The notes under the pieces: generated by a model
Seen by the model: the letters and a program-made list of their open reading frames with translations, nothing else
Databases searched by the model: none
What the model was told of the DNA's origin: nothing
Assembly: GCA_017416915.1 (NCBI GenBank)
Contig: JAFQAN010000036.1
Location: 11,334-75,333, forward strand
Reading direction: 5' to 3'
Source: Alistipes sp.
GTDB taxonomy: Bacteria > Bacteroidota > Bacteroidia > Bacteroidales > Rikenellaceae
DNA length: 64,000 nt
Shown: piece by piece, positions 1,480-61,867 of the stretch
Position numbering within the stretch: position 1 is the first letter of the stretch
How the letters are laid out: every line of letters begins with the position of its first letter
Translations under genes and position numbers: made by a program

Positions 1480-1650
1480 GCGAAGAGAGACAGCGAGAGG
1501 AGCGAGACAGCAAGAGGAGCGGGACAACGAGACCACGAGACAACGAGACAACGAGACCCCTGAAAAACACAGGCGTTCTCAGTCTTTCTCAGTCTTTCTC
1601 AGTCTTTCTCAGTCGTTCTCAGCCGTTCTCAGCCGTTCTCAGCCGTGCGT
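1480..1650 (+). repeat. Mosaic repeat locus 1: 8-mer array, core (1562-1574), 10-mer array
   Basis: (GAGAC/GGGAC-NAC)n, then gaaaaacacaggc, then 7 x Nttctcag(t/c)c. Lies between cysD and cysN. Confidence 0.9.
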
Positions 1651-1688
1651 AAGCTAAGACACAAGAAAACAAAAACAAAAGAAGATAT

Positions 1689-3116
1689 ATGGCACTAAGC
1701 ATAGAAGAATTTTTGGCACAAGATGAGCGTAAAGACCTCCTACGCCTACTCACGGCAGGCTCTGTCGATGATGGTAAATCGACGCTTATCGGTCGTCTGC
1801 TCTTCGACAGCAAGCGTCTCTACGAGGACCAGTTGCAGACGTTGGAGCGCGACAGCAAGCGTGTGGGCAACGCTGGCGACCACATCGACTACGCGTTGCT
1901 GTGCGACGGCTTAAAGGCGGAGCGCGAGCAGGGCATCACCATAGATGTTGCCTACCGCTACTTCTCGACAAATCGTCGTAAGTTCATCATCGCCGACACC
2001 CCAGGACACGAGCAATATACGCGCAATATGATTACGGGTGGCTCGACAGCAAACCTCGCCATCATCCTCGTAGATGCACGTCAGGGCGTTGTAACGCAGA
2101 CCTGCCGCCATAGCTACCTCGTGTCGCTACTCGGCATCCGCCACGTGGTACTGGCAGTCAATAAGATGGACTTGGTAGGCTTCGACAAGAGCCGCTTCGA
2201 CGCCATCGTCGCCGACTACAAGGGGTGGCTTGCACAACAGGAGTTCACAATCGAGGATTTGCAGTGCATACCCCTCTCGGCATTGGAGGGCGACAACGTG
2301 GTTACGAAGAGCGCAAACACGCCATGGTACGAGGGGCAGTCGCTGATGGACTACCTCGAAACCGTGCCTATCAACCAAGATATAAATATGCAGTCGCTGC
2401 GCTTCCCTGTGCAGTATGTGCTGCGCCCCAACCTCGACTTCCGCGGCTTTGCAGGTAAGCTCTCGTCGGGCGTAGTGAAGCGAGGCGACGAGGTTATGGC
2501 ACTCCCCTCGGGCAAACGCTCGAAGATTAAGAGCATCGTAACATACGACGGTGAGCTTGACGAGGCCTTTGCACCGCAGTCGATAACCCTGACGCTCGAA
2601 GACGAGATAGACCTCTCGCGTGGCGATATGTTGGTACACCCCTCGGATTGTCCCACGGTAGGTCATCATCTGCGCGCTATGATGGTGTGGATGGACGAGC
2701 AACCAATGGACAGCAGCAAGCCCTTCTACCTAAAACATACGACCAACACCACACGCGCCCACGTTACGGCGGTAAGGTATCGCGTCGATATAAACACGGG
2801 CGAGAAGCTCCCGACCGAGGGTATGCGCCTCAACGAGATTTCGGAGGTGTCGATAAGCGCTGCATCGCCCCTGATGTTCGACCGCTATGCCGACAACCGC
2901 CAGACGGGAGCCTTCATCCTTATCGACCCCGTAACGAACTTCACCTCGGCCGTAGGTATGATTTTGGCAGAGGACGAGGCTCGTAGGCTTGGCGAACATA
3001 CCGTAGTGCGCCTCTCGGAGTATGGCATAGAGGCAGAGCATTACCACATTATCGAGAAGTTCTGCAAGGAGTTCACACGACGCACGGGCATCGCCATTGA
3101 GTGTCTTAAAGAGTAA
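1689..3116 (+). CDS. cysN: Sulfate adenylyltransferase subunit 1 (GTPase)
   Basis: [49 protein letters not shown] motifs. Confidence 0.96.
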
Positions 3117-3122
3117 CGACGT

Positions 3123-4223
3123 ATGGGAATATTGAACTTTGAGAAGCTACCCGTTAGCACACTTATAGGCTCCGACAGCAAGACATTTGAGCGCGTGATG
3201 GAGGGTGTCGAGGTAGAGAAGCAGTACCGCTCGAAGATACGCACTACGCGCCTTGTAAGGGGGTTGCTCTCGCCCTTCTACAACATCAACACTCGCCGTT
3301 ACAACGCCCTCCCCGAGAGGGAGTACCCCGCGCCCGTCTTTATCATCGGACATTGGCGCAGTGGCACAACGTTCGTACACAACGTGCTGACGCAGGACAA
3401 GCAGTTTGGCTACTGCACGACCTATCAGACGGTCTTTCCACACCTTATGTTGTGGGGCTACCGCCTCTTCCGCACCATTGTCAAGTTCTTTATGCCCTCG
3501 ACACGCGCCACCGACAAGATGGAGCTTGGCGTGGACATACCGCAGGAGGAGGAGATAGCCTTGTCGAATATGACGCCTATGGCGCACTACCACTTCCTTA
3601 GCTTCCCGCAGCGCATAGACCACTACCGCGACCACTGCCTGCTAATGAACAACACCACCGAGGAGGAGCGCGACGAGTTCAAGGCGGCACTGCGTAAGTT
3701 GGTGCGCACGTCGCTCGAAGTGCAGCACAAGGAGGTCTTTCTCTCGAAGAACCCGCCACACACGGCGCGCATAAAGACAATATTGGAGATGTGGCCCGAC
3801 GCCAAGTTCATCTACTTGGTGCGTAACCCCTATACGGTCATCAAGTCCACACGCGACTTCTTCGGCAAGACCACCCGCTCGACGACGCTTCAACACTTCG
3901 ACGAGGAGGGCTTCGAGGAGCAGGTGCTAAGGACATACAAGGCGCTCTACGACAGCTACGAACGCGATAAGAGCCTTATCCCCGAGGGCAACCTCATAGA
4001 GATACGCTTCGAGGAGTTCGAGGCAGACCCCGTGGAGAATGCCCGAAAGATTTACGAGAAGCTACGCTTAGGCGACTTTGAGGCTGTGCGCCCCGCAATG
4101 GAGAAGTACGCAGGCACGAAGCGCGGCTTCAAGAAGAACCGCTACCAGTACGACCCCCACACCGTGGAGTTAGTCGAGAAGTGGTGCGGCGAGGCACTAC
4201 ACAAGTGGGACTACCACCTTTAA
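3123..4223 (+). CDS. PAPS-dependent sulfotransferase (resembles the Bacteroides BT0416-type steroid sulfotransferase)
   Basis: 5'-PSB motif FIIGHWRSGTTFVHN, LSKNPPHT and 3'-PB motif YLVRNPY. Directly downstream of cysN. Confidence 0.88.
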   Translation: MGILNFEKLPVSTLIGSDSKTFERVMEGVEVEKQYRSKIRTTRLVRGLLSPFYNINTRRYNALPEREYPAPVFIIGHWRSGTTFVHNVLTQDKQFGYCTTYQTVFPHLMLWGYRLFRTIVKFFMPSTRATDKMELGVDIPQEEEIALSNMTPMAHYHFLSFPQRIDHYRDHCLLMNNTTEEERDEFKAALRKLVRTSLEVQHKEVFLSKNPPHTARIKTILEMWPDAKFIYLVRNPYTVIKSTRDFFGKTTRSTTLQHFDEEGFEEQVLRTYKALYDSYERDKSLIPEGNLIEIRFEEFEADPVENARKIYEKLRLGDFEAVRPAMEKYAGTKRGFKKNRYQYDPHTVELVEKWCGEALHKWDYHL

Positions 4224-4269
4224 GCAGACTAACTCTTAATCACTAACCTACAACGCAAAACCTCTAATT

Positions 4270-5412
4270 ATGAAGATACTTGCAATATACTTTCGTTCGG
4301 GCAGTGGCATATCGGTAATCTACGAGCGCATCTTCTGCGAGTTGGCGAAACACGCCACGGTGGATGTGCTGAGCGATATGGCACACAGCACCGAGTCGAT
4401 GCCGATACGTAACACATATAGTCTTCCTATGTCGCGCTTTACGCAGTCGCTCTACCGCAAGTGCCTTCGCAACTTTGGCAAAGCACCTATCTCGGAGTGG
4501 TGGAGCCGCAAGGCTATGCGTGTGGTTGCCAACGACTACGACCTTGTCATCGCCTTTGTCGCCAGCTCGCAGCTCACGCCCATCGTCAGCGGCAAGCTCA
4601 TAGCCGAGAAGTTAGGCTGTAAGTTTGCCATCTACTCGGTGGATGCCATACCTGCGCCAGGCGGCTGGACAAAGCCTCGTGAGTACCGCGGCAAGTTGAA
4701 GATTGTCAGCAAGTACTTCGCCTCGGCAGACTACGTGGCGTCGTCGAATAAGCATATGCTCGACTTCCAGCTCTCCACGTTCAAACACAAGCAAGGGTTG
4801 CGTAGCAACGTGCTGCTCACACCCTCGCCCAACGAGGAGTACCACTTCCCCGTGTCGAACGAGGAGCTTATACTCTACACAGGCTCGCTCTACGGTCTGC
4901 GCAACCCCAACTACCTGTTCGGGGCGTTCAAGCGACTGCTTAAAACATACCCTAACGCACGACTGCAACTCGTAGGTATGAAGCACCGCCTGCGCCAGAT
5001 GGACGACATACTGAGCGTAGAGGAGCGCGAGAGAGTGATAATAAGCCCGCACACCTCAAACCTTGCGCCGCTATTCGAGAGGGCGCGTGTGCTTATCGAC
5101 ATCGACGCCGACAGAGAGAAGGACCCCTTCCTGTCGAGCAAGATTATCACATACCTCAAAACCAACCGTATGATACTCTGCGAGACGGGCAAGGACACCC
5201 CCTCGCGCGAGATGTTCCACGGCTACAAGACCATCATCCAGTGCGACCACAACGAGGATAGCTTCTACGAGGGTCTGATGCGCGCTATGGAGCTGAGCCA
5301 AAGCGAGCAGGACTACTCGGAGCGAGAGCCTCTTATCAAGGCGTTCTCAATCGACGTGGTATGCTCCATCTTCTGGGAGGACATCAAGGCTCTGTGCAAC
5401 GTCAGCGAGTAG
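4270..5412 (+). CDS. Putative GT-B fold (GT4-like) glycosyltransferase
   Basis: 380-aa ORF with LILYTGSLYGLRNP and SSKIITYL segments resembling GT4 C-terminal domains. Confidence 0.6.
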   Translation: MKILAIYFRSGSGISVIYERIFCELAKHATVDVLSDMAHSTESMPIRNTYSLPMSRFTQSLYRKCLRNFGKAPISEWWSRKAMRVVANDYDLVIAFVASSQLTPIVSGKLIAEKLGCKFAIYSVDAIPAPGGWTKPREYRGKLKIVSKYFASADYVASSNKHMLDFQLSTFKHKQGLRSNVLLTPSPNEEYHFPVSNEELILYTGSLYGLRNPNYLFGAFKRLLKTYPNARLQLVGMKHRLRQMDDILSVEERERVIISPHTSNLAPLFERARVLIDIDADREKDPFLSSKIITYLKTNRMILCETGKDTPSREMFHGYKTIIQCDHNEDSFYEGLMRAMELSQSEQDYSEREPLIKAFSIDVVCSIFWEDIKALCNVSE

Positions 5413-5512
5413 CCGTAGCCATAAGGTAGGGGCTATGCCCTCTCAACCTCTTGGTGCGCCTTAGTGACGCGACCACTTATCCCTCGAAAAGTGCTACTCG
5501 TAGCCAAAATAT

Positions 5513-5551
5513 GACCGTCGGGCAAATTTTCGCTCGGCGGTCTTCTCGTTT
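5513..5551 (+). terminator. Probable intrinsic terminator after the sulfation operon
   Basis: GC-rich stem gaccgtcgggc...gctcggcggtc followed by ttctcgttt. Confidence 0.5.
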
Positions 5552-5566
5552 CACACATTTTTTCAG

Positions 5567-5574
5567 TAATTTTG
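5567..5574 (+). promoter_or_regulatory. Bacteroidota -7 promoter element for the GH13 gene
   Basis: taattttg matches TAnnTTTG, about 65 nt upstream of the ATG. Confidence 0.55.
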
Positions 5575-5638
5575 TGCGGTATAATATACTATATCAATAG
5601 TATAACGGCGACAAATATTACTTAAAAAATAACTTACT

Positions 5639-8638: not shown

Positions 8639-8662
8639 AGTCCAGAGTAATATAATAGTGAG

Positions 8663-8737: not shown

Positions 8738-9342
8738 GGGACTTTGAGACTACGAGACGACGGGACTACGGGACCACGAGACCCCAGAAAAACACAGGCG
8801 TTCTCAGCCGTTCCCAGCCGTTCCCAGCCGTACGAGGCAGTGCGCTATCACCACGCTCCCAAGCGAGATGAATTTTTGTTAGAAGGGGTTAGATGTGGTG
8901 CTATCCCGAAAGATGGCTGGATGGGGGTTTACTTGGGCGTACATCCCCATTCAGACAGATGAGGGTAGTGCCGCAGATGACCCCTTATCACAAAAATTGC
9001 TTGGCGTCAGAAGGGCGCCGAGTGCTACGCTCGACAAAAGATGCCGCCGATGGACATTCTCTCTCTCCCTCTCCCGCGCACGAATTTAGTGTCAGAAGTT
9101 GTAAGATGTGGTGCATCACAAAAGAGAACCCCGCGGGATAGTACTATGTAGTACAGCCCACGGGATTCTACTTTTTGGGATGTGCCGCAGATTGCAGCTT
9201 ATCACACTAAATGACATTTTTGATTAGAGGGCTGCTTATACAACGCTCGACAAAAGATGCCGCCGATGGGTAGTACTTGCGCGTACGTCCCATTGGCGGC
9301 ATCTTTGTTAGCGGCAGTAGAAGTCTGCCCTATGATTGAAAA
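8738..9342 (+). repeat. Mosaic repeat locus 2: 8-mer/core/10-mer unit plus four tandem hairpin modules
   Basis: Core at 8787-8799. Hairpins at 8871-8998, 8999-9057 (left half only), 9084-9212 and 9216-9343. Lies between convergent GH13 and tnaA. Confidence 0.9.
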
Positions 9343-10716
9343 TTATAGGCGCTCGAGCTTAACAGTAAAGTGACGCATCAACTCGGTCTCCCATACAATC
9401 TTCACACCACGTGTAATCTCGTGACGACGATCATATACGTTCTTCAACGCTGCGGCGATAACGTCCATATGGTTGTTGGTGTATGAACGACGTGCGATGC
9501 ACAAGCGCAACAAGTCGAGACCACCAAAACGGTTCTCACGGGTTACGGGGTCGCGGTCAGCGAGGATGTAGCCAATCTCGCAGCCACGTACACCTGCCTC
9601 CAAGTAAAGCTCAATAGCGAGGGTCTGTGCGGGGAACTCCTCCTTAGGAATGTTGCTAAGCACCTTGTCGGCATCTACGAAGATGGCGTGGCCACCTACG
9701 GGACGCTGGTAAGGAATACCGTACTCGTCGAGCTTAGCTGCGAGGTACTGCACCTGCTTGATACGTGTCTCGATAGTGGGAAGCTCGGTGTTCTCGTCCA
9801 AGCCTACTGCCAAAGCTGCCATATCGCGACCGTTCATACCACCATAGGTAAGGAAGCCCTCGAAGGGGATACAGAAGCGCTTAGCACCCTCGTACCAATC
9901 CTCGTGGCGTGTAGCGATGAAGCCACCCATATTTACCAAGCCGTCCTTCTTTGACGACATTGTCATACCATCGGCATAAGAGAACATCTCCTTGCAAATC
10001 TCCTTGATGCTCTTATCTGCGTAGCCCTCCTCGCGGGTCTTGATGAAGTATGCGTTCTCAACGAAACGTGCTGAGTCGAATACCACGCGCTTGCCATACT
10101 TGTCGGCGATAGCACGTACCTCACGGAGGTTCTTCATTGATACGGGCTGACCACCTGCGGTGTTGTTGGTAATGGTAACGATGATGAAGGGAATCTTCTC
10201 GGCGTTCTCTGCCAATGCCTTCTCCAACTTAGCGGGATCTACCTCGCCCTTGAAGGGAATCTCGAGCTGAGTATCCTTCGCAGCGTCGATGGTACAGTCC
10301 AAAGCGGTAGCCTTGCGGAACTCGATATGACCCTTAGTGGTGTCGAAGTGCGAGTTGCCAGGGATGATGTCGCCAGCCTTTACAAGGTGTGAGAACAACA
10401 CGTTCTCAGCAGCACGACCCTGGTGAGTAGGGATAACATACTCGAAGCCTGTAATCTTGAAGATAGTCTCTTTAAGCTCGAAGAATGACTTTGAACCAGC
10501 ATACGCCTCGTCGCCAGTCATCATTGCTGCCCACTGACGGTCGCTCATAGCGCCAGTACCCGAGTCGGTAAGGCAGTCGATGTAAACCTGCTCAGACTTC
10601 AAACCGAAGAGGTTGTAGTGTGCCTCTTTGAGCCACTGCTCACGCTCCTCGCGAGTACTCATACGCAAGGGCTCAACCATCTTGATACGGTACGATTCTG
10701 CAAATGGAAGTTTCAT
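9343..10716 (-). CDS. tnaA: Tryptophanase
   Basis: Beta-eliminating lyase with PLP motif MSSKKD. Residues HFDTT, CEIG and RHFT match tryptophanase rather than tyrosine phenol-lyase (FTTT, MERG, RFFT). Confidence 0.88.
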   Translation of the reverse strand: MKLPFAESYRIKMVEPLRMSTREEREQWLKEAHYNLFGLKSEQVYIDCLTDSGTGAMSDRQWAAMMTGDEAYAGSKSFFELKETIFKITGFEYVIPTHQGRAAENVLFSHLVKAGDIIPGNSHFDTTKGHIEFRKATALDCTIDAAKDTQLEIPFKGEVDPAKLEKALAENAEKIPFIIVTITNNTAGGQPVSMKNLREVRAIADKYGKRVVFDSARFVENAYFIKTREEGYADKSIKEICKEMFSYADGMTMSSKKDGLVNMGGFIATRHEDWYEGAKRFCIPFEGFLTYGGMNGRDMAALAVGLDENTELPTIETRIKQVQYLAAKLDEYGIPYQRPVGGHAIFVDADKVLSNIPKEEFPAQTLAIELYLEAGVRGCEIGYILADRDPVTRENRFGGLDLLRLCIARRSYTNNHMDVIAAALKNVYDRRHEITRGVKIVWETELMRHFTVKLERL

Positions 10717-17617: not shown

Positions 17618-17633
17618 CGAAAAAATTTTTAAT

Positions 17634-17990
17634 TTTTTGTGATAAGGGGCTATCTGCGGCGCTATGATACAAGTTGCCCCGCGCAGCTGGGGATGGCTGA
17701 GAACGACTGGGAAAGACTGAGAATGACTGAGAATGGCTGTGTTTTTCAGGGGACTACGGGACTACGGGACTTCGGGATATTGCGGGATATTGCGGGATAT
17801 TGCGGGATATTGCGGGCGATGCCCGCATTTTTCGCAGACGTGTAGTCTCGTCGTCTCGTGGTCTCGTGGTCTCGTCGTCCCGTGGTCCCGTCGTCTCGTT
17901 GGCGCGCCCTCAGGCGTTCTCAGGCGTTCTCAGTCTTTCTCAGGCATTCTCAGCCAATCGCGCCCCCCACCTATGCGTATCTAAGCTAAC
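17634..17990 (-). repeat. Mosaic repeat locus 3: half hairpin, inverted 10-mer/core, (ttgcgggata)x4, 8-mers, ggcgcgcc, 10-mers
   Basis: gtgataagggg at about 17639; inverted core at 17735-17747; arrays read directly from sequence. Confidence 0.88.
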
Positions 17991-22877: not shown

Positions 22878-23128
22878 ATTTGTTGTGATAAGGGGTCATC
22901 TACTGCCGCTAACGAATTATCTCGCCAATGGGCAGTACGTTCAAGTACAGCCCATCGGCTCGAAATTCGCCGAGCGTTGTATCTGACGCCCTTCTGACAA
23001 CAAATTGCCTTGCACTGCTGAGAACGCCTGAGAAAGACTGAGAAAGACTGAGAACGCCTGTGTTTTTCAGTGGACTTAGGGTATCTCGCAGTCCCGTGGT
23101 CTCGTGGTCCCGTAGTCTCGCAGTCCTG
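22877..23128 (-). repeat. Mosaic repeat locus 4 (inverted): full hairpin 22877-23006, 10-mers, core, 8-mers
   Basis: aatttgttgtgataag...cttctgacaacaaatt; inverted core at 23056-23068. Confidence 0.92.
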
Positions 23129-26812: not shown

Positions 26813-27049
26813 GGGAATTTAGAGAATTTAGAGAGGTTAGGGAGCGCACTGCCTCGCACGACTGGGAACGACTGAGAATGCCTGGGAATGCCTGTGTTTT
26901 TCTGGGGTCCCGTGGTCTCGCAGTCTCGTGGTCTCGTGGTCCCGCAGTGCCGCCGATAAAGAGATTGGGCTGGATGGATAGTACTTGACGTACATTCCAT
27001 TCAGCCCAATGATTGAGGCGGCGCTGATGCGCCGCTATCACAACAAATT
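26813..27049. repeat. Mosaic repeat locus 5: 9-mers, inverted 10-mer/core/8-mer unit, hairpin lacking its left terminus
   Basis: Inverted core at 26890-26902; hairpin 26946-27049 ends ctatcacaacaaat. Confidence 0.88.
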
Positions 27050-27050
27050 T

Positions 27051-27584
27051 TTATTCTGCAAATATAGCCGCAAAATTAGGATCATCGGCAACCTTCATCA
27101 TCGCCTCCATCATCTCCTGCTCATACTCAGCCATGATATTGTCAGCAACCTGCTGATCTCTCTCGTCCAAAGCGTCGTACCAAGAGTTGCACTCCTCAAA
27201 AGTTGCGGCAAATGCCTCAGCATCGCCATTGTCAATGGCTTCGAGCATCTGCATAGCGTAGTTGTCAGCTATCTCGCCAGTGGTGAAGCCTCCGCAGCCG
27301 AGGTCATCCTCGTACTCCTCCTCAAACTCGCCTGCGAGCTGAGCCTCATACTCCTCGATAGCTGCATCAGCCTTAGCCTTATCCTCCTCGCTAAGACCGT
27401 TATACCAAGTCTCAATCTCGGTGAGGAGCTTCAATGCTGCCTCAGCGTCATCGCCCTCAGAAACCTTCTCCATCTGCTCGTAGTAAGCCTTTACCTGCTC
27501 CTCTACGGTAAGCTCCTTCTTCTTCTCGCCACCGCAAGCAACCAGCATTGCAGCAGCCACCATTATCGCTAAAAGTCTTTTCAT
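27051..27584 (-). CDS. Acidic lipoprotein with two copies of a ~50-aa helical domain
   Basis: Lipobox LVAC-GGEKK; internal repeat GD.EA.....E...WY..L.E.D...AD.....Y. Confidence 0.75.
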   Translation of the reverse strand: MKRLLAIMVAAAMLVACGGEKKKELTVEEQVKAYYEQMEKVSEGDDAEAALKLLTEIETWYNGLSEEDKAKADAAIEEYEAQLAGEFEEEYEDDLGCGGFTTGEIADNYAMQMLEAIDNGDAEAFAATFEECNSWYDALDERDQQVADNIMAEYEQEMMEAMMKVADDPNFAAIFAE

Positions 27585-27619
27585 AGCTTTCTGTCTATTT
27601 ATAGCTTAAAATCTATCTA

Positions 27620-27940
27620 CTACCACTCCTCCTCGTAGTCAAGGTCGCTCATCTCGCCGTCGAGTTCTCCCATCTCGTACTCCATCATCGCCTCAATTAT
27701 ACGCTCCTCATACTGCTCCATCACCTTGTCTGCCTTCTTCTGGTCAGCCTCGCTAAGTGTCTCATACCACTCGTCGCAGACCTCAACAAGCTGCTCAGCC
27801 TTCTCCATATCACCAGCCTCCACAGCTACGATGACAGCCTCAATCTTTGCCTTTGCCTGCTCCTCAACGCTCTGCTTCTTCTCGCCACCGCAAGCAACAA
27901 ACAATGCGGCAACAAACATAATAGCTAAAATCTTCTTCAT
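27620..27940 (-). CDS. Acidic lipoprotein, tandem paralogue with one copy of the same domain
   Basis: MKKILAIMFVAALFVAC-GGEKK; shares cttcttctcgccaccgcaagcaac with its neighbour. Confidence 0.75.
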   Translation of the reverse strand: MKKILAIMFVAALFVACGGEKKQSVEEQAKAKIEAVIVAVEAGDMEKAEQLVEVCDEWYETLSEADQKKADKVMEQYEERIIEAMMEYEMGELDGEMSDLDYEEEW

Positions 27941-28044
27941 AATCTTAATTTTTTTTACGGTTAATAATAGTTTCATTAGTACAAATATAGTATTTATTTT
28001 GTATCGTTGTACCTTTCACGCTAAAAAATAGTTACATTTGCACT

Positions 28045-29657: not shown

Positions 29658-29669
29658 GAGAGACGATTG

Positions 29670-30124
29670 AGCGAGAGCGGCTGAGAGGCGCGCGATTGAC
29701 TGAGAAAGAGTGGGTGGCGCGCAATTGACTGAGAACGCCTGAGAAAGACTGAGAAAGACTGGGAAAGACTGAGAATGACTGGGTGGCGCGCCAACCGAGA
29801 CAACGAGACGACGGGACGACGGGACTACGGGACTACGGGACTGCGAGACTGCGAGACCACGGGACGACGAGACCACGAGACCACGAGACCACGAGACCGC
29901 AATACCCCAAAAAAACACAGTCGTTCTCAGGCATTCTCAGGCATTCTCAGTCGTGCGTGGCCGTGCGTGGCTGTACGTGGCAGCTTGGCGTCAGAGTGGT
30001 GTAGATGTGTTCTATCGCAAAAGAGAGTGCCGTGGGATAGTACTAAAACGTACAGCCCACGGCACTCTACTTTTTGGGATAGGACGCAGATGCGCCGCTA
30101 TCACGTCAAGCTATCACGCCAAGC
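29670..30124 (+). repeat. Mosaic repeat locus 6: ggcgcgc caps, inverted 10-mers, 8-mer array, core, 10-mers, full hairpin 29983-30111 and a duplicated right terminus
   Basis: Core at 29909-29922; ...ctatcacgtcaag-ctatcacgccaagc. Confidence 0.92.
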
Positions 30125-36854: not shown

Positions 36855-36879
36855 AAGTTTTTTTGAGGGGGGGGGAAAT

Positions 36880-37434
36880 GCTGGGTGGCGCGCGATTGAC
36901 TGGGAATGGCTGAGTGGGCGCGCGATTGACTGAGAATGACTGAGAACGACTGAGAACGACTGGGTGGCGCGCCGACGGGACTACGGGACTACGGGACTGC
37001 GAGACTACGAGACAACGAGACTGCGAGACTGCGGGACAACGAGACTACGAGACTACGAGACTACGAGACTGCGGGACCACGGGACCACGGGATACCCTAA
37101 AAAACACAGGCGTTCTCAGGCATTCTCAGGCGTTCTCAGTCGTGCAAGGCAGTACGTGGCTGCGCGAGGCAGCTTGGCGTCAGAGTGGTGCAGTAGTACC
37201 GCCGATAAAGAGATTGGGCTGGATGGATAGTACTGTGCGTACATTCCATTCAGCCCAATGATTGAGGCGGCGCTGATGCGCCGCTATCACGCCAAGCAAC
37301 GACAAGGGCTTGGTGTGAGAAGGGCGCCGAGTGCTACACTCGGCAAAAATGCCGTCGATGGGTAGTACTAAGACGTACGTCCCATTGACGGCATTTTTTG
37401 TTAGGGGACGCAATCGACCCCTTATCACGCCAAG
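36880..37434 (+). repeat. Mosaic repeat locus 7: caps, inverted 10-mers, long 8-mer array, core, 10-mers, two full hairpins (37172-37297, 37308-37434)
   Basis: Core at 37099-37111; the second hairpin ends 1 nt before the POT transporter stop codon. Confidence 0.93.
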
Positions 37435-42154: not shown

Positions 42155-42446
42155 GAGCGGCTGAGAGGCGCAACCACGAGACTGCGAGACCACGAGACTG
42201 CGGGACTGCGAGACCACGAGACTACGAGACTGCGAGACTGCGGGACCACGAGACCACGAGACCACGAGACTGCGAGACCTCTGAAAAACACAGTCTTTCT
42301 CAGGCGTTCCCAGTCGTTCTCAGGCATTCTCAGTCTTTCTCAGGCGTTCTCAGTCATTCCCAGGCGTTCCCAGTCATTCCCAGTCGTTCTCAGTCGTGCG
42401 AGGCTGTGCGAAGCTGTGCGAGGCATTGCCCCTTATCACGCCAAAG
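42155..42446 (+). repeat. Mosaic repeat locus 8: 8-mer array, core, 10-mer array, hairpin right tip
   Basis: Core at 42283-42295; ends ccccttatcacgccaaag. Confidence 0.92.
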
Positions 42447-44186: not shown

Positions 44187-44400
44187 GCGAGACGACGAGA
44201 CGACGAGACGACGAGACGACTGAGAACGACTGAGAATGCCTGAGAATGCCTGTGTTTTTTAGGGTATCCCGTGGTCCCACAGTCCCGCAGTCCCGTGGTC
44301 CCGCAGTCCCGTGGTCTCGTAGTCTCGTAGTCCCGCAGTCCCGTGGTCCCGTGGTCTCGCACCACCCGCACATCCATAAACTCCATAAACTCCCTAATCA
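44187..44400 (-). repeat. Mosaic repeat locus 9: 8-mers grading into 10-mers, inverted core, 8-mer array, 9-mers
   Basis: (gagacgac)4-tgagaacgac-(tgagaatgcc)2-tgtgtttttt; core at 44248-44260. Confidence 0.92.
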
Positions 44401-46689: not shown

Positions 46690-46862
46690 TTGTTGTCAGA
46701 AGACGAGAGATGTGGCACATCGCCAAAGAATAAAATTTGTTGTCAGAAGGCATTAGATACAACGCTCGGTGAATTTGTCGGCGATGGGCTGTACTAAAAC
46801 GTACTGCCCATTGCCGACACAATTCATTAGCGGCAGTAGATGATGCCTTATCACAACAAATT
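46690..46862 (+). repeat. Mosaic repeat locus 10: truncated left half plus full hairpin 46734-46862, without microsatellite arms
   Basis: aatttgttgtcagaaggcat...atgccttatcacaacaaatt; overlaps the kdsC stop codon. Confidence 0.9.
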
Positions 46863-54413: not shown

Positions 54414-54421
54414 AATATTTG

Positions 54422-55347: not shown

Positions 55348-55392
55348 GGAGCGATGATAATAGATTAATAATCAACGAATAAATCTCTTCAA

Positions 55393-55995
55393 ATGATAAT
55401 TCTTCCCTCGGTATATTTCGGCTCGGTGGAGTATTGGACAGCCCTTGTCAAGGGCAAAGACGACGTGGTAATCGACATCGGCGAGAACTATGTGAAGCGC
55501 TCGGAGCGTAACCGCACCTCGATACTCACTTCGGGCGGCGTTATGCAACTTTCGGTGCAGCTTGCCCACGCCAACCGCCCACGACAGCCGATGCGCTCGA
55601 TGCGTATCGACTACTCGAAGCGTTGGCAGCACCAGCACCGCGTAGCGATGGAGTCGGCATACCGCTCGTCGCCCTACTACGACTACTTTGCCGACCGTTT
55701 CGAAACGCTATACACCACCCACTACGACTACCTCTTAGACCTAAATATGGCGACATTGGAGAGGGTGTGTTCGTTGCTGAAAATCGACGTGCCGCGCATC
55801 TCGGAGCAGTACATATCTGCCTCGGCAGAGGACATCGACCTGCGCGACAAAAAGAGAGGCTCCACCTTCACGGCAGAGCCTTATACTCAGGTATTTGAGG
55901 ATAGAATGGCGTTCGAGCCAAACCTCTCGATATACGACCTTGTGATGTGCGAGGGCAGGGAGGCTATCGACGTGCTTTTAGCGAGTGAGTTGTAA
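55393..55995 (+). CDS. WbqC-like family protein
   Basis: YVKRSERNRT, AYRSSPYYDYF, NLSIYDL. Confidence 0.85.
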   Translation: MIILPSVYFGSVEYWTALVKGKDDVVIDIGENYVKRSERNRTSILTSGGVMQLSVQLAHANRPRQPMRSMRIDYSKRWQHQHRVAMESAYRSSPYYDYFADRFETLYTTHYDYLLDLNMATLERVCSLLKIDVPRISEQYISASAEDIDLRDKKRGSTFTAEPYTQVFEDRMAFEPNLSIYDLVMCEGREAIDVLLASEL

Positions 55996-57988
55996 ACCCT
56001 ACGCTGTCGCGCAGCCCTCCCGTAGCATCCACGGCACGTACCGTGGCCCGCTGATGGACAACAACGCTATCGGCAACATATTGACACTGGGCAACCTCTC
56101 TCACGGCAACCGTGTCGCCCTCGACAATGAGCGTGGGCGTACCTGTCGAACAATAGACCTTTATATTTTGTAGCGTATCACGCCTCTCGGTCCAGCGGCG
56201 CTCGGCGATATGTAGCGTACCTCTACGCCTATTCCACATAGCGCGATAGAGGTAGTAGGCATCCTTCGCCGCGCGGTGGTCAAAGTCCATAAGTCCCGAG
56301 TGGTCAATGCCGTAGCTATTGCGTGTGGTGGCAAAGTCATACATATTCTCCAACCACACGCCCCAAAATATGCCCGACGAGGGGAGTATAGCGGCATAGC
56401 GCTCGTGCATAAGTGTTTGGCGGCGCTCCGAGAGGCGGTGTGTGCCACGCTCGGCACGGCGCACCTCGTCGTCCTGATGCGACATCATACCCTGCTCGCC
56501 ATACGACACGGCGTAGCGCAACGCCTCCCACGCCCTATTTGACGAGAGCTGGTCGCACCACACTTCAACATCGTCGAACTGCCCCTTCATCCAGCCCGCA
56601 TCCTGACGAAAGACTATAAGGTCGGTAACGAAGTTTATCGCACCATTACTATTGCTGCACCCCACCGTAGGGCGTGAGGCATCGAGGCTGTGTGCCAACG
56701 CGTCCAACTCCTCGATAAAGGGTACCACATCGTCGCCGCGCTGCCACGCCAGCGAGAAGAGACCCCACATCGCCACCGACGGGTGGTTAAAATTCTGTGC
56801 TACAATCTCTTGAAGTTGTTGCTTTGCGTTGTCCTGCAACGCCACCGTAGGCAGATAGCCCACATCGGCAAAGGCGTAGCGTGAGCGCGTCAGAGGCAGG
56901 TCTATCCACGCCAAAATGCCTCGTCTGTCGCACTCGTCGTAGAGCATATCGGCGTGCGGACCTCCCAACGAGCGGATGGCATTGGCACCCAAATCTTCAA
57001 TTTGGTCGATATCCGAGAGAATCTGCTCGCGGCTCATTGCACTACCCGATGCGTGGCAGTCGTGAGCGAGGTTTACGCCCTGCACAAAGAGGGGTTTATC
57101 GTTGATGAGCAGCTTGTTATCTTCGCTAATAGAGATTTTGCGAATACCCGTCTTAACGCTTACGAAGTCCATAGGCGACTCCTCATCGCCCAACGACACC
57201 TCGACCGTGTAGAGCGAGGGCGAGGCGGGACTCCACAGCTCGGGATAGTTAATCTCGAAGGGTATTTCGACCGTGCGTCCCGACTCAATCTTTGTGGCAC
57301 GTACGCTACGACGGTCCACCTCATAGCCGTCTGGGGCGACGATACGCATATTTACCGCCACATTATCCGACGTGGGCGACGACAGATGCACACGCACAAC
57401 GCCCGACGCTTGGTTAGCATCGACCTTCTGCTGCACGACAAAGAGACCGTCGGAGCCATAATAGAGGGGCGTAACGATACTCTTGCCCGTAACCAACAGC
57501 TCTACATCGCGGTAGATGCCGCCATATAGGTTTTGGTCCGTCGAGAGGGGTAGCACGTCGTTGCGATAGCTATTCGACACCTCGACAAGCAGCTGATTGT
57601 TAGCGCCATAGTTTACACGGTGTGTGATTTCGAGCGTGAAGGCGGTATATCCTCCACGATGCTCGCCCACGTGGCGGCCATTGACAAAGACATCGGCTAC
57701 GCTCTGCACACCGCCAAAGCGCAAGAAGAGGCGCTTGCCGCTCCACTCCGCAGGGATATACAACTCGCGCAGATAGCGCGCCGTGGTGCGGCGGTAGTCG
57801 TGGTCGGCGACGGCAACATCGTCATTCCAGGTATGGGGCAGCTCGACATAGCGCGCATTGTCGCTGTCGTGTTCCGAGGCGTAGAAAAACATCCAATCAT
57901 CGTTGAGCGAATAGCTACTGCGTAGCGGCTCAACAGCCTGTGCCATACAGGTAAAAAAGATGGCTATTATGGTTAAAACTCTCTTCAT
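55964..57988 (-). CDS. Glycoside hydrolase family 2 homologue, possibly catalytically inactive
   Basis: LPHTWN, FLRFGGVQSVADVFVNG..GEHRGGYTAF, YGGIYRDV, NHPSVAMWG. The usual NE and EYG glutamate motifs are not present. Confidence 0.85.
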   Translation of the reverse strand: MKRVLTIIAIFFTCMAQAVEPLRSSYSLNDDWMFFYASEHDSDNARYVELPHTWNDDVAVADHDYRRTTARYLRELYIPAEWSGKRLFLRFGGVQSVADVFVNGRHVGEHRGGYTAFTLEITHRVNYGANNQLLVEVSNSYRNDVLPLSTDQNLYGGIYRDVELLVTGKSIVTPLYYGSDGLFVVQQKVDANQASGVVRVHLSSPTSDNVAVNMRIVAPDGYEVDRRSVRATKIESGRTVEIPFEINYPELWSPASPSLYTVEVSLGDEESPMDFVSVKTGIRKISISEDNKLLINDKPLFVQGVNLAHDCHASGSAMSREQILSDIDQIEDLGANAIRSLGGPHADMLYDECDRRGILAWIDLPLTRSRYAFADVGYLPTVALQDNAKQQLQEIVAQNFNHPSVAMWGLFSLAWQRGDDVVPFIEELDALAHSLDASRPTVGCSNSNGAINFVTDLIVFRQDAGWMKGQFDDVEVWCDQLSSNRAWEALRYAVSYGEQGMMSHQDDEVRRAERGTHRLSERRQTLMHERYAAILPSSGIFWGVWLENMYDFATTRNSYGIDHSGLMDFDHRAAKDAYYLYRAMWNRRRGTLHIAERRWTERRDTLQNIKVYCSTGTPTLIVEGDTVAVREVAQCQYVADSVVVHQRATVRAVDATGGLRDSVGFTTHSLKARR

Positions 57989-58006
57989 ATTGCAACATTA
58001 TCGCCA

Positions 58007-58014
58007 CAAAGATA
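58007..58014 (-). promoter_or_regulatory. -7 promoter element for the GH2 gene
   Basis: tatctttg on the minus strand. Confidence 0.55.
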
Positions 58015-58096
58015 CAAATAAACGAAAAAAATTACTAACTTCGTGCGAAATATTGGGTTGAGAAAACCTCAAAAAAGTAACTTAACGACACCGATT

Positions 58097-58762
58097 ATGA
58101 TTGATATTTTAGTTGCTATTGCCGCCGTTTGGGCTTTTATCTTGGGTCTGCGCCGCGGTATGATTGTTCAACTCTGCCACCTTGTAGGACTCTACGTCGC
58201 TATACTCATAGCACCCACCATCGCCTCGCCCATAGGCTCGCTACTTATGGACGACCCAGGCAAGGCTTATATCGCAGGCTTCGGCATTGTGGTTGCCGTG
58301 GTGCTTCTGGTGGTGTGGTTAGTAGCGCCGCTACTGCGCTCGATAGTCATCTGGCGCCCTGCACGGCAGTTAGACAGCCTACTGGGCGGTGTGCTTAACC
58401 TCGCCACAATGGTACTCGTTACCGCCGTACTCTTCTCGGTATTCGACCGTGCCAACATCAGCGAGAAGCCGCGTTGGGAGAGGATTGGCGACCTTGTGGC
58501 AGAGTGCGAGAGCGACGAAGAGCTACGCGAAAAGATACTATCGCTGGAAAACGGACAGGGCGAGATGCGCGAATACTTCTATCCGCGCCTCGTAGAGTAC
58601 GAGACACTCGACGCCTCGGCGACATTCACCCCTCTGGCACACCTTGGCGATAGGCTATGTCCCACGCTCGGCAAGATTGACGAGCTTATACAGCAGGAGG
58701 CAGCCAACGCCGTACTCGGCGGTGATGTTATTGTGTGGGGCAAGGAGTTTTCACAGCAATAA
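58097..58762 (+). CDS. CvpA family membrane protein
   Basis: GLRRGMI.QL, LDSLLGGVL; four TM segments. Confidence 0.75.
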   Translation: MIDILVAIAAVWAFILGLRRGMIVQLCHLVGLYVAILIAPTIASPIGSLLMDDPGKAYIAGFGIVVAVVLLVVWLVAPLLRSIVIWRPARQLDSLLGGVLNLATMVLVTAVLFSVFDRANISEKPRWERIGDLVAECESDEELREKILSLENGQGEMREYFYPRLVEYETLDASATFTPLAHLGDRLCPTLGKIDELIQQEAANAVLGGDVIVWGKEFSQQ

Positions 58763-58774
58763 ACCTATTTTAGA

Positions 58775-59698
58775 ATGGAGCAACTACTCGAAGGCACGGT
58801 AATCAGCTCTACGGGCAGCTGGTACGAAGTCGAGACTGCTGAGGGCAGGCTCAACTGCCGCATACGTGGACGTCTGAGGCTCAAAGGCATACGTTCGACA
58901 AACCCCGTCGTCGTGGGCGACCGCGTAAGGGTCGAACCCGACAACGACAGTAGCGCAATAGTGGAGATTCTACCACGCCGCAACTACGTCATACGCCGCG
59001 CCTCGAACCTCTCGAAGGAGTCGCATATCATCGCCGCCAACATCGACCGAGCGCTGCTCATCGTAACGCTGCACTCGCCAGCCACGCCGCGCGAGTTTGT
59101 CGATAGGTTTTTGGTTACGTGCGAGGCATACAAGATACCCGTAACCATCGCCTTGGGCAAGGCAGATACGCTTACGGGCGAGCATCACGACGAGGCGGAG
59201 GAGTTTTGCGCCATATACCGCGATGCGGGTTACGACGTCGTTCGCCTATCCTCGACCACAGGCGAGGGCGTTGAGCATATCGCCTCGATGCTATCGGGGC
59301 GCACAACGCTTGTGGCAGGCAACTCGGGCGTGGGTAAATCGACACTCATAGGCACCATCGCCCCCGACGTAGAGATACGCACGGGCGAAATCTCCGAGAG
59401 CCACCATAAGGGCAAGCACACCACCACATTTTCGACGATGTACCGCATCCACGACGGATATATCATCGACACGCCAGGCATCAAGGGCTTCGGTCTTATC
59501 GACATCGACGACAGGGAGCTATGCCGCTACTTTCCCGAGATGATGCGCCTCGCCCCCGACTGCCGCTTCTACAACTGCACACACACACACGAGCCAGGCT
59601 GCGCCGTGCGTAGCGCCGTAGAGGAGGGTATGGTGGCGTGGTCGCGCTACGAGAGCTACCTGAAAATATTGGACGAAGATGACAAATATCGCAAGTAG
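58775..59698 (+). CDS. rsgA: Ribosome small subunit-dependent GTPase A
   Basis: GNSGVGKSTL, KGKHTTT, DTPGIKGF, CRFYNCTHTHEPGC. Confidence 0.96.
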   Translation: MEQLLEGTVISSTGSWYEVETAEGRLNCRIRGRLRLKGIRSTNPVVVGDRVRVEPDNDSSAIVEILPRRNYVIRRASNLSKESHIIAANIDRALLIVTLHSPATPREFVDRFLVTCEAYKIPVTIALGKADTLTGEHHDEAEEFCAIYRDAGYDVVRLSSTTGEGVEHIASMLSGRTTLVAGNSGVGKSTLIGTIAPDVEIRTGEISESHHKGKHTTTFSTMYRIHDGYIIDTPGIKGFGLIDIDDRELCRYFPEMMRLAPDCRFYNCTHTHEPGCAVRSAVEEGMVAWSRYESYLKILDEDDKYRK

Positions 59699-60401
59699 AT
59701 TACGCACCGAGGAGCATAGCGACGCTTGGTTTCGCGAGCGCCTCGACTATATGACCCAATTTCTCACGGACGAGCGACAGCAGATACTGCGCCGCACCGT
59801 GGCACAGCGCACCCACTACGTGCGCATCCTCACCGAGAATATGTTTCATCCGCAGAATGCCAGCGCCATAATGCGCCACTGCGAGGCCTTCGGCGTGCAG
59901 CAGATACACACCGTCGAGGACCGCTGCCGCTTCGACCCGAGCGTAAACATCGTGCGCGGCACGCAGAAGTGGGTCGATGTGGAGCATCACGCCACCACCG
60001 CCGACGCCCTTGCCGCCCTACGCTCGGAGGGCTACCGCATCGTGGCAACAACACCGCACCGATGCAGCTCTACGCCCGAGACCTTCGACGTTACGAAGGG
60101 TAAGTTTGCCTTAGTCTTCGGCACCGAGCATGCAGGCATCTCGGACGAGGTTATAGCTGCGGCAGACGATTTCTTAATGATTCCGATGTGTGGTATGGTC
60201 GAGAGCCTCAACGTCTCGGCATCTGCCGCTATCCTTATATATATGCTCGCGGAGCGTGTGCGACAAAGTGTCGAGGGGTGGCAGCTCAGCGACGCGGAGC
60301 AGCTGCGACTGCTCACACGCTGGACACTGTCGAGCATCCGCGACTACGAGGGCATACTACGCCGCGCCGAGCAGTGCGGCAAACTGACGGTGGAGCGTTA
60401 G
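59679..60401 (+). CDS. TrmH/SpoU family RNA methyltransferase
   Basis: HPQNASAIMR, VFGTEHAGIS, IPMCGMVESLNVSAS. Confidence 0.9.
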   Translation: MTNIASRLRTEEHSDAWFRERLDYMTQFLTDERQQILRRTVAQRTHYVRILTENMFHPQNASAIMRHCEAFGVQQIHTVEDRCRFDPSVNIVRGTQKWVDVEHHATTADALAALRSEGYRIVATTPHRCSSTPETFDVTKGKFALVFGTEHAGISDEVIAAADDFLMIPMCGMVESLNVSASAAILIYMLAERVRQSVEGWQLSDAEQLRLLTRWTLSSIRDYEGILRRAEQCGKLTVER

Positions 60402-60436
60402 CAGCCGTTAGACATAATACTGTCAATAAAAGAGTT

Positions 60437-61630
60437 ATGATACTTAGAAAACAATTTTTGCAACACGTAGGACAGACCTCGCCGTCGCCTATGCTGATAG
60501 AGGTCGCCCGTGCCGAAGGCTCGTTCTTCTATACGCCCGAGGGCAAGCGCTACTTCGACCTTGTGGCGGGTGTGTCGGTGAGCAACGTAGGACACGGCAA
60601 TAGCGAGGTCATCGCCGCCGTGCAGAAGCAAGCAGCTGACTATATGCACATTATGGTCTATGGCGAGATGGTCGAGCGCCCGCAGGTGGAGTATGCTCGT
60701 CGCATCGCAGAGCTGCTGCCTGGGGCGCTGGACTGCGTCTATTTCGTCAGCTCGGGAGCAGAGGCTGTCGAGGTGGCGCTAAAACTCGCAAAACGCTATA
60801 CGGGACGTACAGAGCTTATCTCTATGCGCCGTGCCTACCACGGCTCGACACACGGTGCGATGTCGATGATGGGCGCCCCCGAAGGCGAGGAGTGGAAGGC
60901 TGCGTTCAGACCTCTGCTGCCCGATACGCGCGCCATCGAATTTAACTCCTTCGACGACCTTCGATATATCACCGAGCGCACGGCAGGAGTGCTTTGCGAG
61001 GTGGTGCAGGGCGAGGCGGGCATACGTCTTCCCAACCCCGAATGGCTGCACGCTCTGCGTGAGCGCTGCTCGGAGGTGGGTGCGCTGCTTATCTTCGACG
61101 AGATACAGACGGGTATGGGTCGCACGGGCGAGATGTTCGCCTCGACGAAGTATGGCGTAACGCCCGATGTGGTCTGCTTGGCAAAGGCTTTTGGTGGCGG
61201 TATGCCCCTCGGCGGCGTAGCGGCAAACAGCAAAATTTTAGACTCTTTTACGAATAACCCTTGCTTGGGTCATATAACGACGTTTGGCGGTCATCCTGTA
61301 TGCTGCGCCGCAGGTCTTGCAGCACTCAACTACCTGATAAATAACAATATCGTCGAGCAAGTCGAGGCTAAGGGCGAGCTGTTTGAAAGACTGCTTGCGG
61401 ACCATCCTCACGTCAAGGAGATTCGTCGCTCGGGACTTTTGATGGCTGTTGAGTTGGGCAGCTCGGAGCGCCTCTACGCGATGATGGATATGTTCAAGGA
61501 GGCGGGTATTATGAGCGACTGGTTTTTGTACTGCGACACGGCATTTAGAATCTCTCCGCCGCTCACAATTTCGGAGGGCGAAATTGAGGAGTGCTGCACG
61601 ATTATTCGCCGCGCACTCGACAGGCTGTAA
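60437..61630 (+). CDS. Class III PLP aminotransferase (ArgD-like)
   Basis: AYHGST, EVVQGEAG, FDEIQTGMGRTG, LAKAFGGG, TTFGGHP; start at MILRK. Confidence 0.9.
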   Translation: MILRKQFLQHVGQTSPSPMLIEVARAEGSFFYTPEGKRYFDLVAGVSVSNVGHGNSEVIAAVQKQAADYMHIMVYGEMVERPQVEYARRIAELLPGALDCVYFVSSGAEAVEVALKLAKRYTGRTELISMRRAYHGSTHGAMSMMGAPEGEEWKAAFRPLLPDTRAIEFNSFDDLRYITERTAGVLCEVVQGEAGIRLPNPEWLHALRERCSEVGALLIFDEIQTGMGRTGEMFASTKYGVTPDVVCLAKAFGGGMPLGGVAANSKILDSFTNNPCLGHITTFGGHPVCCAAGLAALNYLINNNIVEQVEAKGELFERLLADHPHVKEIRRSGLLMAVELGSSERLYAMMDMFKEAGIMSDWFLYCDTAFRISPPLTISEGEIEECCTIIRRALDRL

Positions 61631-61639
61631 AAAGATAGG

Positions 61640-61867
61640 ACGGCGGGACTGCGAGACAACGGGACTACGAGACCCCCGAAAAACACAGGCATTCTCAGGC
61701 GTTCCCAGGCGTTCTCAGCCATTCTCAGTCGTGCGCGGCAGTTTGTTGTGAGAGTGGTGCAGATGTGGTGCATCGCAAAAGAGAGCACCACGGGATAGTA
61801 CCAAAACGTACAGCCCGTGGTGTTTTACTTTTGGGATGTACCGCAGATGCGCCACTATCACAACAAA
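61640..61867 (+). repeat. Mosaic repeat locus 11: 8-mers, core, 10-mers, full hairpin 61742-61867
   Basis: Core at 61678-61690; tttgttgtgagagtgg...ccactatcacaacaaa. Confidence 0.92.

Follow-up and report, generated by a model that had tools for sequence, protein, structure and literature searches.

The intergenic repeats studied here, which occur at eleven loci of a 64,000-nt stretch of Alistipes sp. DNA (the window; contig JAFQAN010000036.1, assembly GCA_017416915.1), are best explained as a non-coding mosaic of two fused, selfish-looking families that has been amplified in this Alistipes lineage and is diversifying by slippage and by recombination between copies, a reading to which we assign a probability of about 0.58. 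One family is a module of short tandem arrays placed around a core, here called the arms, and the other is a hairpin of about 125 nt; the mosaic that they form is apparently undescribed so far. The source is a metagenome-assembled genome (MAG) of an uncultured gut Alistipes (1.97 Mb, 42 contigs, 51.6% G+C), the whole of which was tokenised into the following parts: E, an array of 8-mers (CGRGACNN); K, the core CC(C)TGAAAAACACAG, which reads AAAAACACAG in the window loci; T, an array of 10-mers (CAGNCNTTCY); D, degenerate 10-mers (NGTGCGNGGC); H, the ~125-nt hairpin unit; t, a reversed 10-mer array; and W, a GGCGCGCC box. Hairpins were counted across the assembly using an iterated nhmmer profile, and relatives were searched using a covariance model of the hairpin.

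Genome-wide, the repeats comprise 78 true cores and 186 hairpins (165 of full length) and cover 45 kb, corresponding to 2.3% of the genome and 19% of its intergenic DNA. The local order E-K-T is found at 75 of the 78 cores, and K is followed by T, D and H at 56, frequencies that lie beyond chance; the strict full order is kept at 51 of 78, and the complete arrangement reads W t W E K T D H(1-4), with palindromic units and limited linker motifs standing in fixed orders and hairpins arranged head to tail in runs of one to four. This goes beyond the grammar proposed in the first-pass annotation, as the 8-mers usually follow a reversed 10-mer array and a GGCGCGCC box. Moreover, a GC-rich, terminator-like stem-loop module can take the position of the hairpin, both across this genome and in other strains. 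Arrays range from 2 to 29 units, the unit counts of the longest ones (> about 150 nt) being those of short-read assemblies only. They do not correspond to CRISPR arrays (clustered regularly interspaced short palindromic repeats), which have repeats of 25-40 nt and unique spacers: the units here measure 8 and 10 nt and run head to tail without spacers. Contigs C12, C14, C17, C21, C22, C28, C31, C38 and C41 start or end in a hairpin or an array, and these repeats are a main cause of assembly breaks in this MAG.

The window loci were checked with Tandem Repeats Finder, a repeat finder and direct reading. All eleven were found where the first-pass annotation had placed them, and the order that it gave (8-mers, core, 10-mers, degenerate 10-mers, hairpin from left to right end) was recovered at loci 2, 4, 6, 7 and 11 in either orientation, as were the solitary hairpin of locus 10 and the arms standing alone at loci 1 and 9. 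Its likening of this dispersed, non-coding grammar to that of bacterial interspersed mosaic elements (BIMEs) is equally sustained, whereas its interpretation is supported only in part: the grammar is real, but the elements are not a single system, and two repeat families of independent distribution are joined in them.

This distinction comes from comparison with other genomes. An exact core-plus-10-mer pattern, scanned against one genome per species across 185,579 species, retrieved a single other record, a goat-colon MAG of a sister Alistipes species (G015), in which two composites of the same grammar were found. The cysD-cysN gap of this sister species measures about 55 nt, against 273 nt here, thereby providing the contrast of empty and filled orthologous sites that the first-pass annotation had sought; whole-genome synteny between the two is otherwise too rearranged, and 2 orthologous gaps were recovered from 375 kb. 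The covariance model, by comparison, matches 30 of 201 Rikenellaceae genomes, in 5 of the 31 genera sampled. Because hairpin and arrays are distributed independently, they are two families, and because their distributions differ in this manner, the hairpin is old and patchy and the 8-mer/core/10-mer module young and lineage-specific. Array-linked hairpins mostly belong to one left-end subtype; together with the empty cysD-cysN gap of the sister species and the two composites found there, this suggests that, once the two species had split, the arms and one hairpin subtype would have reached about 78 sites by spreading jointly as one unit. The novelty claimed for the family is also supported: Rfam gave no match at gathering or E-value threshold other than a tRNA-Thr in the window (the best sub-threshold match was a plant miRNA hairpin, at 26.8 bits versus a gathering threshold of 150), plasmid and phage collections gave a single 39-nt chance match, the pattern scan of JGI metagenomes gave none, and no description was found in the literature.

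Among conspecific strains, the repeats differ where their surroundings hardly do. Strain contigs from other samples, collected through exact-protein look-up and with flanks 97.8-100% identical, were compared at eight or so loci. The cysD-cysN gap (window plus 10 strain contigs with an identical CysD protein) varies from 270 to 358 nt and presents eight array alleles, which differ in the number and order of unit variants in both arms around a constant core. In another strain, a ~33-nt unit, GGGAATGAGCGGCAGTTCGCATCAGAA, is triplicated to the left of the arrays in this gap (L048, 3906-4226), tandem expansion thus extending to sequence beyond the named arrays. Each array of locus 3 varies between strains; at locus 4, other strains differ in the hairpin interior, have the hairpin truncated or carry another set of arrays; and locus 6 has one or two hairpins with three interiors, plus an orphan 13-nt right end in all strains. 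The joining of 8-mers to a truncated hairpin at locus 5, an apparent exception to the grammar, is shown by the sequences of other strains to be a deletion derivative of their fuller alleles. A linker, CGCTCCCAAGCGAGAT (8845-8870), and an orphan 13-nt hairpin right end, CTATCACGNCAAG, placed after full hairpins (30098-30110), recur among the elements, and suggest a repeated loss of hairpin bodies via exchange between right ends. The presence/absence polymorphism that the first-pass annotation had named as a check on mobility did not appear among conspecifics, which show only changes in array length, cassette swaps, deletions and a flipped array; in view of this lack of clean polymorphism, the amplification is older than the divergence of the strains.

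The arms themselves have a recognizable internal history. At 44188-44252, the 8-mer GAGACGAC leads directly into TGAGAACGAC, indicating that the 8-mer is a reversed 10-mer minus two bases. In another species (G012) and in genome G259, the same side of the hairpin bears 9-mer arrays followed by their reverse complement, and the foldback arrays of G012 do fold (z -3.8 and -5.0). A relic of these 9-mers is preserved at 26815-26844, and at C25:21253 9-mers are joined to K and T. Read in this manner, the E-K-T module looks like a foldback whose left arm changed its period from 10 nt to 8 nt, a shortening by which it has lost the ability to pair. A present-day foldback structure of the arms, as RNA or DNA, was considered and rejected, as they fold no better than shuffled sequences (z +2.2, +1.1 and +0.4; z +2.24 for the strand of locus 8).

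A possible origin of the arms is provided by a gene located outside the window. Searches with PF05635 returned one weak match in this genome (C20:109646-109879, just below the Pfam cut-off), within a gene encoding a four-helix-bundle protein of 181 aa (C20:109370-109912), the only S23p-like gene of the genome. The open reading frame (ORF) scores 66.5 bits against TIGR04258, the suffix domain (cut-off 40), and 28 bits against TIGR02436 (cut-off 24). A single-sequence AlphaFold prediction reached a pLDDT of 45, and an alignment-based model (pLDDT 89) was used instead; its best matches are the S23p structures 2gsc and 2rld (target TM 0.7-0.83), while a sequence search of the PDB was not significant (2gsc, E 0.3). 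On either side of the gene, at C20:109.0-110.2 kb, stands a direct copy of the block (GGGAAYRCCT)n-GGGAAAACTC-(TCTCAGNCNT)m, in which a 10-mer array in reverse leads through a K-like junction into a CAGNCNTTCY 10-mer array in forward direction, the family being that of the 78 modules; neither 8-mers nor a GGCGCGCC box were found at this locus. Since the same 10-mer blocks and K-like junction flank the gene, the dispersed arms would most likely be gene-less derivatives of a four-helix-bundle cassette. One of the arrays at this gene has 29 units in another strain versus 13 here.

Homologues of the protein (48-59% identity) are encoded in 27 of the 201 family genomes, and 25 of 26 gene loci, of which 24 are homologues in other genomes, have tandem arrays no more than 450 nt away, on both sides in 21, compared with a baseline of 4.8% of all genes having arrays on both sides in this array-rich genome. 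Most of the arrays beside these genes consist of 9-mers whose units are specific to the locus, a unit often being accompanied by its complement. Short classical PF05635 genes of the same genus (L107-L108, L110) also adjoin short tandem arrays: L110 (G011:C1:1644132-1644446) has AATTAAA x4.6 on one side and TAATTTT x4.7 on the other, and L107 a weak, ~2-copy 21-nt repeat only. To our knowledge, no function of S23p proteins has been established since their discovery in rRNA intervening sequences, and we know of no catalytic activity for the four-helix-bundle protein.

The four-helix-bundle gene, which is non-enzymatic, is the only linked gene found, and searches for enzymes were negative. The first-pass annotation had postulated a trans-acting enzyme not encoded in the window, and indeed no candidate is present there. 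PF01797 (Y1 transposase) has no match in this genome, under conditions in which control searches matched, and among 61 genomes of the genus it occurs only in G004, where BLAST and the hairpin model detected no hairpin; in the hairpin-rich genomes tested, neither RVT_1 nor IS110 is present. No partner of the HUH/RAYT type (RAYT, REP-associated tyrosine transposase; REP, repetitive extragenic palindrome) or of the reverse-transcriptase type proposed in that annotation was found, and, with classical DDE families left outside the searches, no full-length insertion sequence (IS) with these ends: this genome contains 17 orphan ends, none bracketing a gene, and relatives, searched non-exhaustively, yielded none. 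The agent of movement would thus appear to be neither a Y1/RAYT transposase nor a reverse transcriptase nor an IS110 enzyme, and the four-helix-bundle protein would be the only candidate for a trans-acting partner. This protein cannot account for the behavior of the hairpin, because the two families do not generally co-occur.

The hairpin, which is of REP/REPIN type, carries terminal inverted repeats (AGCTTGGCGT... or AATTTGTTGT...), in the manner of MITEs, the miniature transposable elements with inverted repeats; the arm module has no inverted ends. Two segments are nearly invariant: GG..GTAC-N6-GTAC..CC at the apex, and (T)AGCTTGG or (T)AATTTGTTG at the foot. The fold is conserved, as compensatory double changes occur at 27 of 38 predicted base pairs (20 copies, 10 species), and it is asymmetric: the H strand (TTGGCGTCAGAG...CTATCACGCCAA) is the better-folding of the two strands in 143 of 157 copies (medians of -70.8 versus -55.9 kcal/mol) and bears 826 G.U pairs, against 72 on the other strand. 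At locus 11, for example, the plus strand reaches -118.2 kcal/mol (z -11) and the minus strand -98.3.

Hairpins dock at the ends of genes. Convergent gaps hold 55 of 103 hairpin-bearing elements while making up 13% of all gaps, and divergent gaps (13% background) are avoided, with 4 of 117 elements. Of 103 elements, 86 have the right end of H turned toward a stop codon, from which it is separated by a median of 4 nt. In the window, the last hairpins of loci 2 and 7 adjoin the stops of minus-strand genes ending at 9343 and 37436, respectively, and the hairpin of locus 4 begins 2 nt past the EPSP-synthase stop codon. REP elements, too, often lie within a few bases of a stop codon. Exactly one base separates the stop from a following TTG in 23 of 70 cases; the ends are cTTGG where the stop is TAG and tTTGTTG where it is TAA, which means that the stop codon overlaps the terminal repeat. 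The ORFs of this genome exceeding 150 aa use TAA, TAG and TGA at 56, 39 and 5%, TGA thus being rare, and no preference for a stop-codon type is seen at hairpins (39/26/5, p 0.74). The idea that TGATAA in the hairpin supplies the stop of the gene was rejected, as it holds in 6 of 169 copies only.

The orientation of hairpins is nearly uniform within each contig and follows the sign of GC skew rather than the direction of genes. Masking the repeats and taking the skew locally places H on the C-rich strand in 143 of 163 copies (Fisher 2.6e-23), in a genome whose genes are split 55:45. The rule is kept in 48 of 49 convergent gaps, where the gene context is symmetric, by 11 of 11 elements co-directional with their genes, by 53 of 60 cores, and by 28 of 30 copies in species G012. 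The leading strand is usually G-rich; from this and the position of H on the C-rich strand, we infer that the foldable strand is the leading-strand template and that the docked genes are leading-strand genes. Orientation would then be set by a one-strand step at the replication fork, either insertion or orientation-dependent loss. A similar polarity is a feature of attC sites in chromosomal integrons; the hairpin differs from attC in its ends (CTTGG...CCAAG) and in the dispersal of its copies among housekeeping genes, the intI gene itself not having been searched for.

A more specific version of our interpretation can be put forward tentatively, though we consider it rather unlikely as a whole: the arms may be the amplified, gene-less form of an unrecognized cassette, in which an S23p/Avd-like protein maintains or moves foldbacks without a transposase, fused to a hairpin that homes to the stops of leading-strand genes by a replication-strand-specific step. 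Several points weigh against our main interpretation. No site is empty in any of the conspecific strains compared, and no insertion event within the species was caught. No target-site duplication was found at solitary copies or between alleles with one and two hairpins, only orphan 13-nt right ends. Across genera, the distribution of the four-helix-bundle family is independent of that of the hairpin, and in G015 and G012 (MAGs, 88% complete) arrays are present and the four-helix-bundle gene was not detected; a repeat-flanked gene is easily lost from a MAG bin. Gene context is derived from crude, ORF-based gene calls, and replication direction from the GC skew of MAG contigs without a mapped origin. 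Finally, a host function, instead of selfishness of the DNA, could underlie the strong conservation seen in the one-strand fold of the hairpin and, across genera, in the sequence of its apex.

Such a host function could be that of RNA signals at gene ends, with the hairpin acting as a terminator or 3'-end stabilizer, or with its better-folding strand transcribed as an antisense RNA from a promoter in the arrays, and the arrays serving as spacers or as protein-binding RNA. The close docking at stop codons, the enrichment in convergent gaps, the compensatory changes and one-strand G.U pairs, and the replacement of the hairpin by a terminator-like stem-loop are all consistent with this alternative; in E. 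coli, REPs near stop codons are reported to affect expression. Promoters are also carried by the BrickBuilt repeats of P. gingivalis (PMC4596501). We nevertheless consider it unlikely, since the strand that folds well is antisense to the docked gene and orientation follows GC skew whatever the direction of the gene, as the 11 same-direction and 48 convergent cases demonstrate. In addition, the hairpin is patchy within the family, copies are few in the sister species, where the cysD-cysN insert is lacking, and array units and lengths vary between strains and species.

The very strong replication-linked polarity of hairpins and cores would be consistent with polar chromosome sites comparable to KOPS, Chi or arrays for nucleoid proteins, in which the periodic 8- and 10-bp units would be bound by a protein, conceivably the four-helix-bundle one, while the hairpins would provide strand-specific signals at the fork. 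Fixed and free positions within the units, and a 10-bp period equal to one helical turn, would suit protein binding. This explanation appears improbable: the repeats are absent from most relatives, their copy number differs strongly from that of the sister species (78 here versus 2 found there), their units differ by species, their lengths are unconstrained (2 to 29 units), and the elements are confined to gaps at gene ends instead of being spread along the replichore.

Locus 5 raises the question of a phase-variable switch, in which 8-mers and core would invert between inverted 10-mer arrays as the invertible promoters of Bacteroidales do. Within one and the same pair of inverted 10-mer arms, some strains have its 8-mer array and core in forward direction (t W E K T) and others have them in reverse (t k e K' T) (window versus L058, L059, L061 and L064); an inversion or a cassette replacement are both possible. 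The array side also points toward a gene start in 36 of 103 elements. However, the alleles are not exact inversions, as their junctions differ (GGCGCGCC box versus K-like junction), inspection of the units reveals no evident Bacteroidetes promoter consensus, no invertase is linked, and most copies lie between convergent genes, which together make a switch very unlikely.

A classical REPIN/RAYT or IS200/IS605-derived system would share with these elements a hairpin with a conserved foot, the lack of target duplication, replication polarity and proximity to gene ends, and TnpA-REP subclasses do exist in Bacteroidetes (PMC6006769). This origin is highly improbable given that PF01797 is lacking here, its sole match in the genus falling in a genome with no detected hairpin, and that the unit measures 125 nt rather than 20-40. 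Furthermore, the better-folding strand occupies the leading-strand template, opposite to the strand rule of IS608 (PMC5027513, PMC6006769). That the arrays are artefacts of short-read metagenome assembly, as contig ends within these repeats and arrays exceeding read length might suggest, is hardly credible, because independent assemblies from different samples and assemblers give identical alleles (L040 = L041; L042 = L043; window = L044 = L056) and the grammar recurs at 78 sites and in a second species.

The positions of the parts at each window locus are summarized in the following table.

Table. Repeat elements of the 64-kb window, with their component parts (window coordinates).
Feature	Position	Strand	Parts
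Locus 1, arms only, cysD-cysN gap	1487..1646	+	17/8-mer array 1487-1557, core 1563-1572, 10-mer array 1570-1646
Locus 2, array part	8738..9335	+	8-mers 8738-8782, core 8788-8797, 10-mers 8795-8831
Locus 2, after 10-mers		+	degenerate units, orphan hairpin end, linker to about 8870
Locus 2, hairpins	8874-8996, half unit 9000-9055, 9086-9210, 9225-9335	+	
Locus 3, double unit, first part	17631..17953	.	truncated reversed hairpin end 17631-17660, reversed 10-mers 17693-17739, reversed core about 17735-17746
Locus 3, middle			8-mers 17750-17777, (CGGGATATTG)4 17773-17816, terminator-like stem-loop GCGGGCGATGCCCGC plus T5 17813-17832
Locus 3, last part			reversed 8-mers 17845-17899, GGCGCGCC box about 17901-17908, 10-mers 17909-17953
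Locus 4, reversed composite	22880..23126	-	hairpin 22880-23003, 10-mers 23018-23054, core 23057-23068, 8-mers 23084-23126
Locus 5, left part	26815..27046	-	relic 9-mers (GGAATTTAG type) 26815-26844, reversed degenerate and 10-mer units 26851-26894
Locus 5, right part			reversed core 26891-26902, reversed 8-mers 26907-26948, fused to 5'-truncated plus-strand hairpin 26947-27046
Locus 6, full composite, arrays	29664..30110	+	reversed 10-mers with GGCGCGC boxes 29664-29793, 8-mers 29796-29898, core 29909-29920
Locus 6, rest			10-mers 29921-29950, degenerate 10-mers 29952-29981, hairpin 29984-30097, orphan 13-nt right end to 30110
Locus 7, full composite, arrays	36873..37434	+	reversed 10-mers and boxes 36873-36973, 8-mers 36975-37089, core 37099-37109
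Locus 7, rest			10-mers 37107-37143, degenerate units 37144-37172, hairpins 37173-37296 and 37309-37434
Locus 8, arms without hairpin	42173..42424	+	8-mers 42173-42279, core 42284-42293, 10-mers 42291-42397, degenerate 10-mers 42396-42424
Locus 9, arms only, reversed	44188..44359	-	(GAGACGAC)4 44188-44220, reversed 10-mers 44220-44252, reversed core 44249-44260, reversed 8-mers 44267-44359
Locus 10, solitary hairpin between convergent genes	46737..46859	+	
Locus 11	61632..61866	+	8-mers 61632-61672, core 61679-61688, 10-mers 61686-61732, degenerate unit 61733-61742, hairpin 61743-61866

Some of these loci have further features. Positions 3-5412 of the window form a cysC-cysD-cysN-sulfotransferase operon (APS kinase, PAPS reductase family, GTPase and Sulfotransfer domains), and the module of locus 1, being placed inside it between cysD and cysN, must be co-transcribed. 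At locus 3, the stem-loop GCGGGCGATGCCCGC with its T5 tract (17813-17832) resembles an intrinsic terminator set between 8-mer arrays. Elsewhere in the window, two adjacent small minus-strand genes share a 97-nt stretch over their starts (27516-27612 and 27872-27968, 72% identical) and look like paralogous lipoprotein or signal-peptide genes.

A repeat that occupies a fifth of the non-coding DNA, lies within operons and on stop codons, and differs between strains whose neighboring proteins are identical is a ready strain marker, and it may modify the expression of adjacent genes. Two of its features are without a known mechanism: the near-absolute replication polarity combined with stop-codon docking in genomes lacking a Y1 transposase, and the recurrent pairing of S23p-like four-helix-bundle genes with tandem arrays. 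As the flanks of such a gene have been multiplied about 78-fold in this genome, the function of S23p becomes open to experiment here. If the reading of a mobile cassette joined to a stop-homing hairpin were true, it would reveal new routes of DNA mobility, of unknown enzymology, in gut Bacteroidales.

The nearest kinds of known element are REP/BIME/REPIN (REPINs being hairpin-forming REP doublets), BOX, BrickBuilt, S23p intervening sequences (IVSs) and the short tandemly repeated repetitive (STRR) arrays; by sequence, the mosaic is a member of none of them, and the RAYT that would mark the first group was not found. BIME, REP and REPIN systems are likewise high-copy intergenic palindromes combined with linker motifs in a fixed grammar, which form head-to-tail clusters, lie at gene ends, lack target duplications and vary among strains (PMC3116915, PMC6006769). 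They differ in the Y1 transposase, absent from the hairpin-bearing genomes searched here, and in their palindromes of 20-40 nt with a 5' GTAG or in doublets, as opposed to a single 125-nt hairpin with a GTAC-N6-GTAC apex; the near-absolute polarity, with the foldable strand C-rich, and the 8/10-mer arrays within the element are further differences. The STRR-type heptamer arrays of Xanthomonas and Nostoc are intergenic 7-nt units in 2-26 copies, depleted in divergent gaps, located near stops and strain-variable (PMC4692102), whereas the units described here are different and not G-quadruplex-prone, and are organized in two periods with a core and in a fixed order with a hairpin.

The BOX element of Streptococcus pneumoniae (boxA-boxBn-boxC) shares a modular order with a middle module of variable number, a restriction to one species and its closest relative, co-transcription, and a slow current transposition of what is judged a parasite (PMC3049150); its modules measure 45-59 nt versus 8-10 nt here, and its abstract mentions neither replication polarity nor stop-codon docking (PMC3049150). 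Within Bacteroidales, the BrickBuilt MITE of Porphyromonas gingivalis is also intergenic and species-restricted, with a minisatellite of fixed and free positions in 1 to 23 unit copies between leader and tail flanks (PMC4596501). It consists of one array of 23-nt units, in 19 copies with small inverted ends (PMC4596501), in contrast to two arrays of different period around a core plus a 125-nt hairpin at 78 sites; none of the other species scanned has the core pattern, so that nothing points to homology. In the S23p (PF05635) cassettes, known as 23S rRNA intervening sequences of Coxiella, Leptospira and others, a four-helix-bundle gene is carried by a hairpin-forming selfish element, and in the Coxiella IVS tandem heptamers of strain-variable number stand beside the S23p ORF (PMC4990558). 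Similarly, two tandem-array blocks enclose the gene described here, the model of which matches S23p structures; it differs from these cassettes in its location outside rRNA, in an additional C-terminal suffix domain (TIGR04258), and in long arrays that have spread, gene-less, to about 78 sites.

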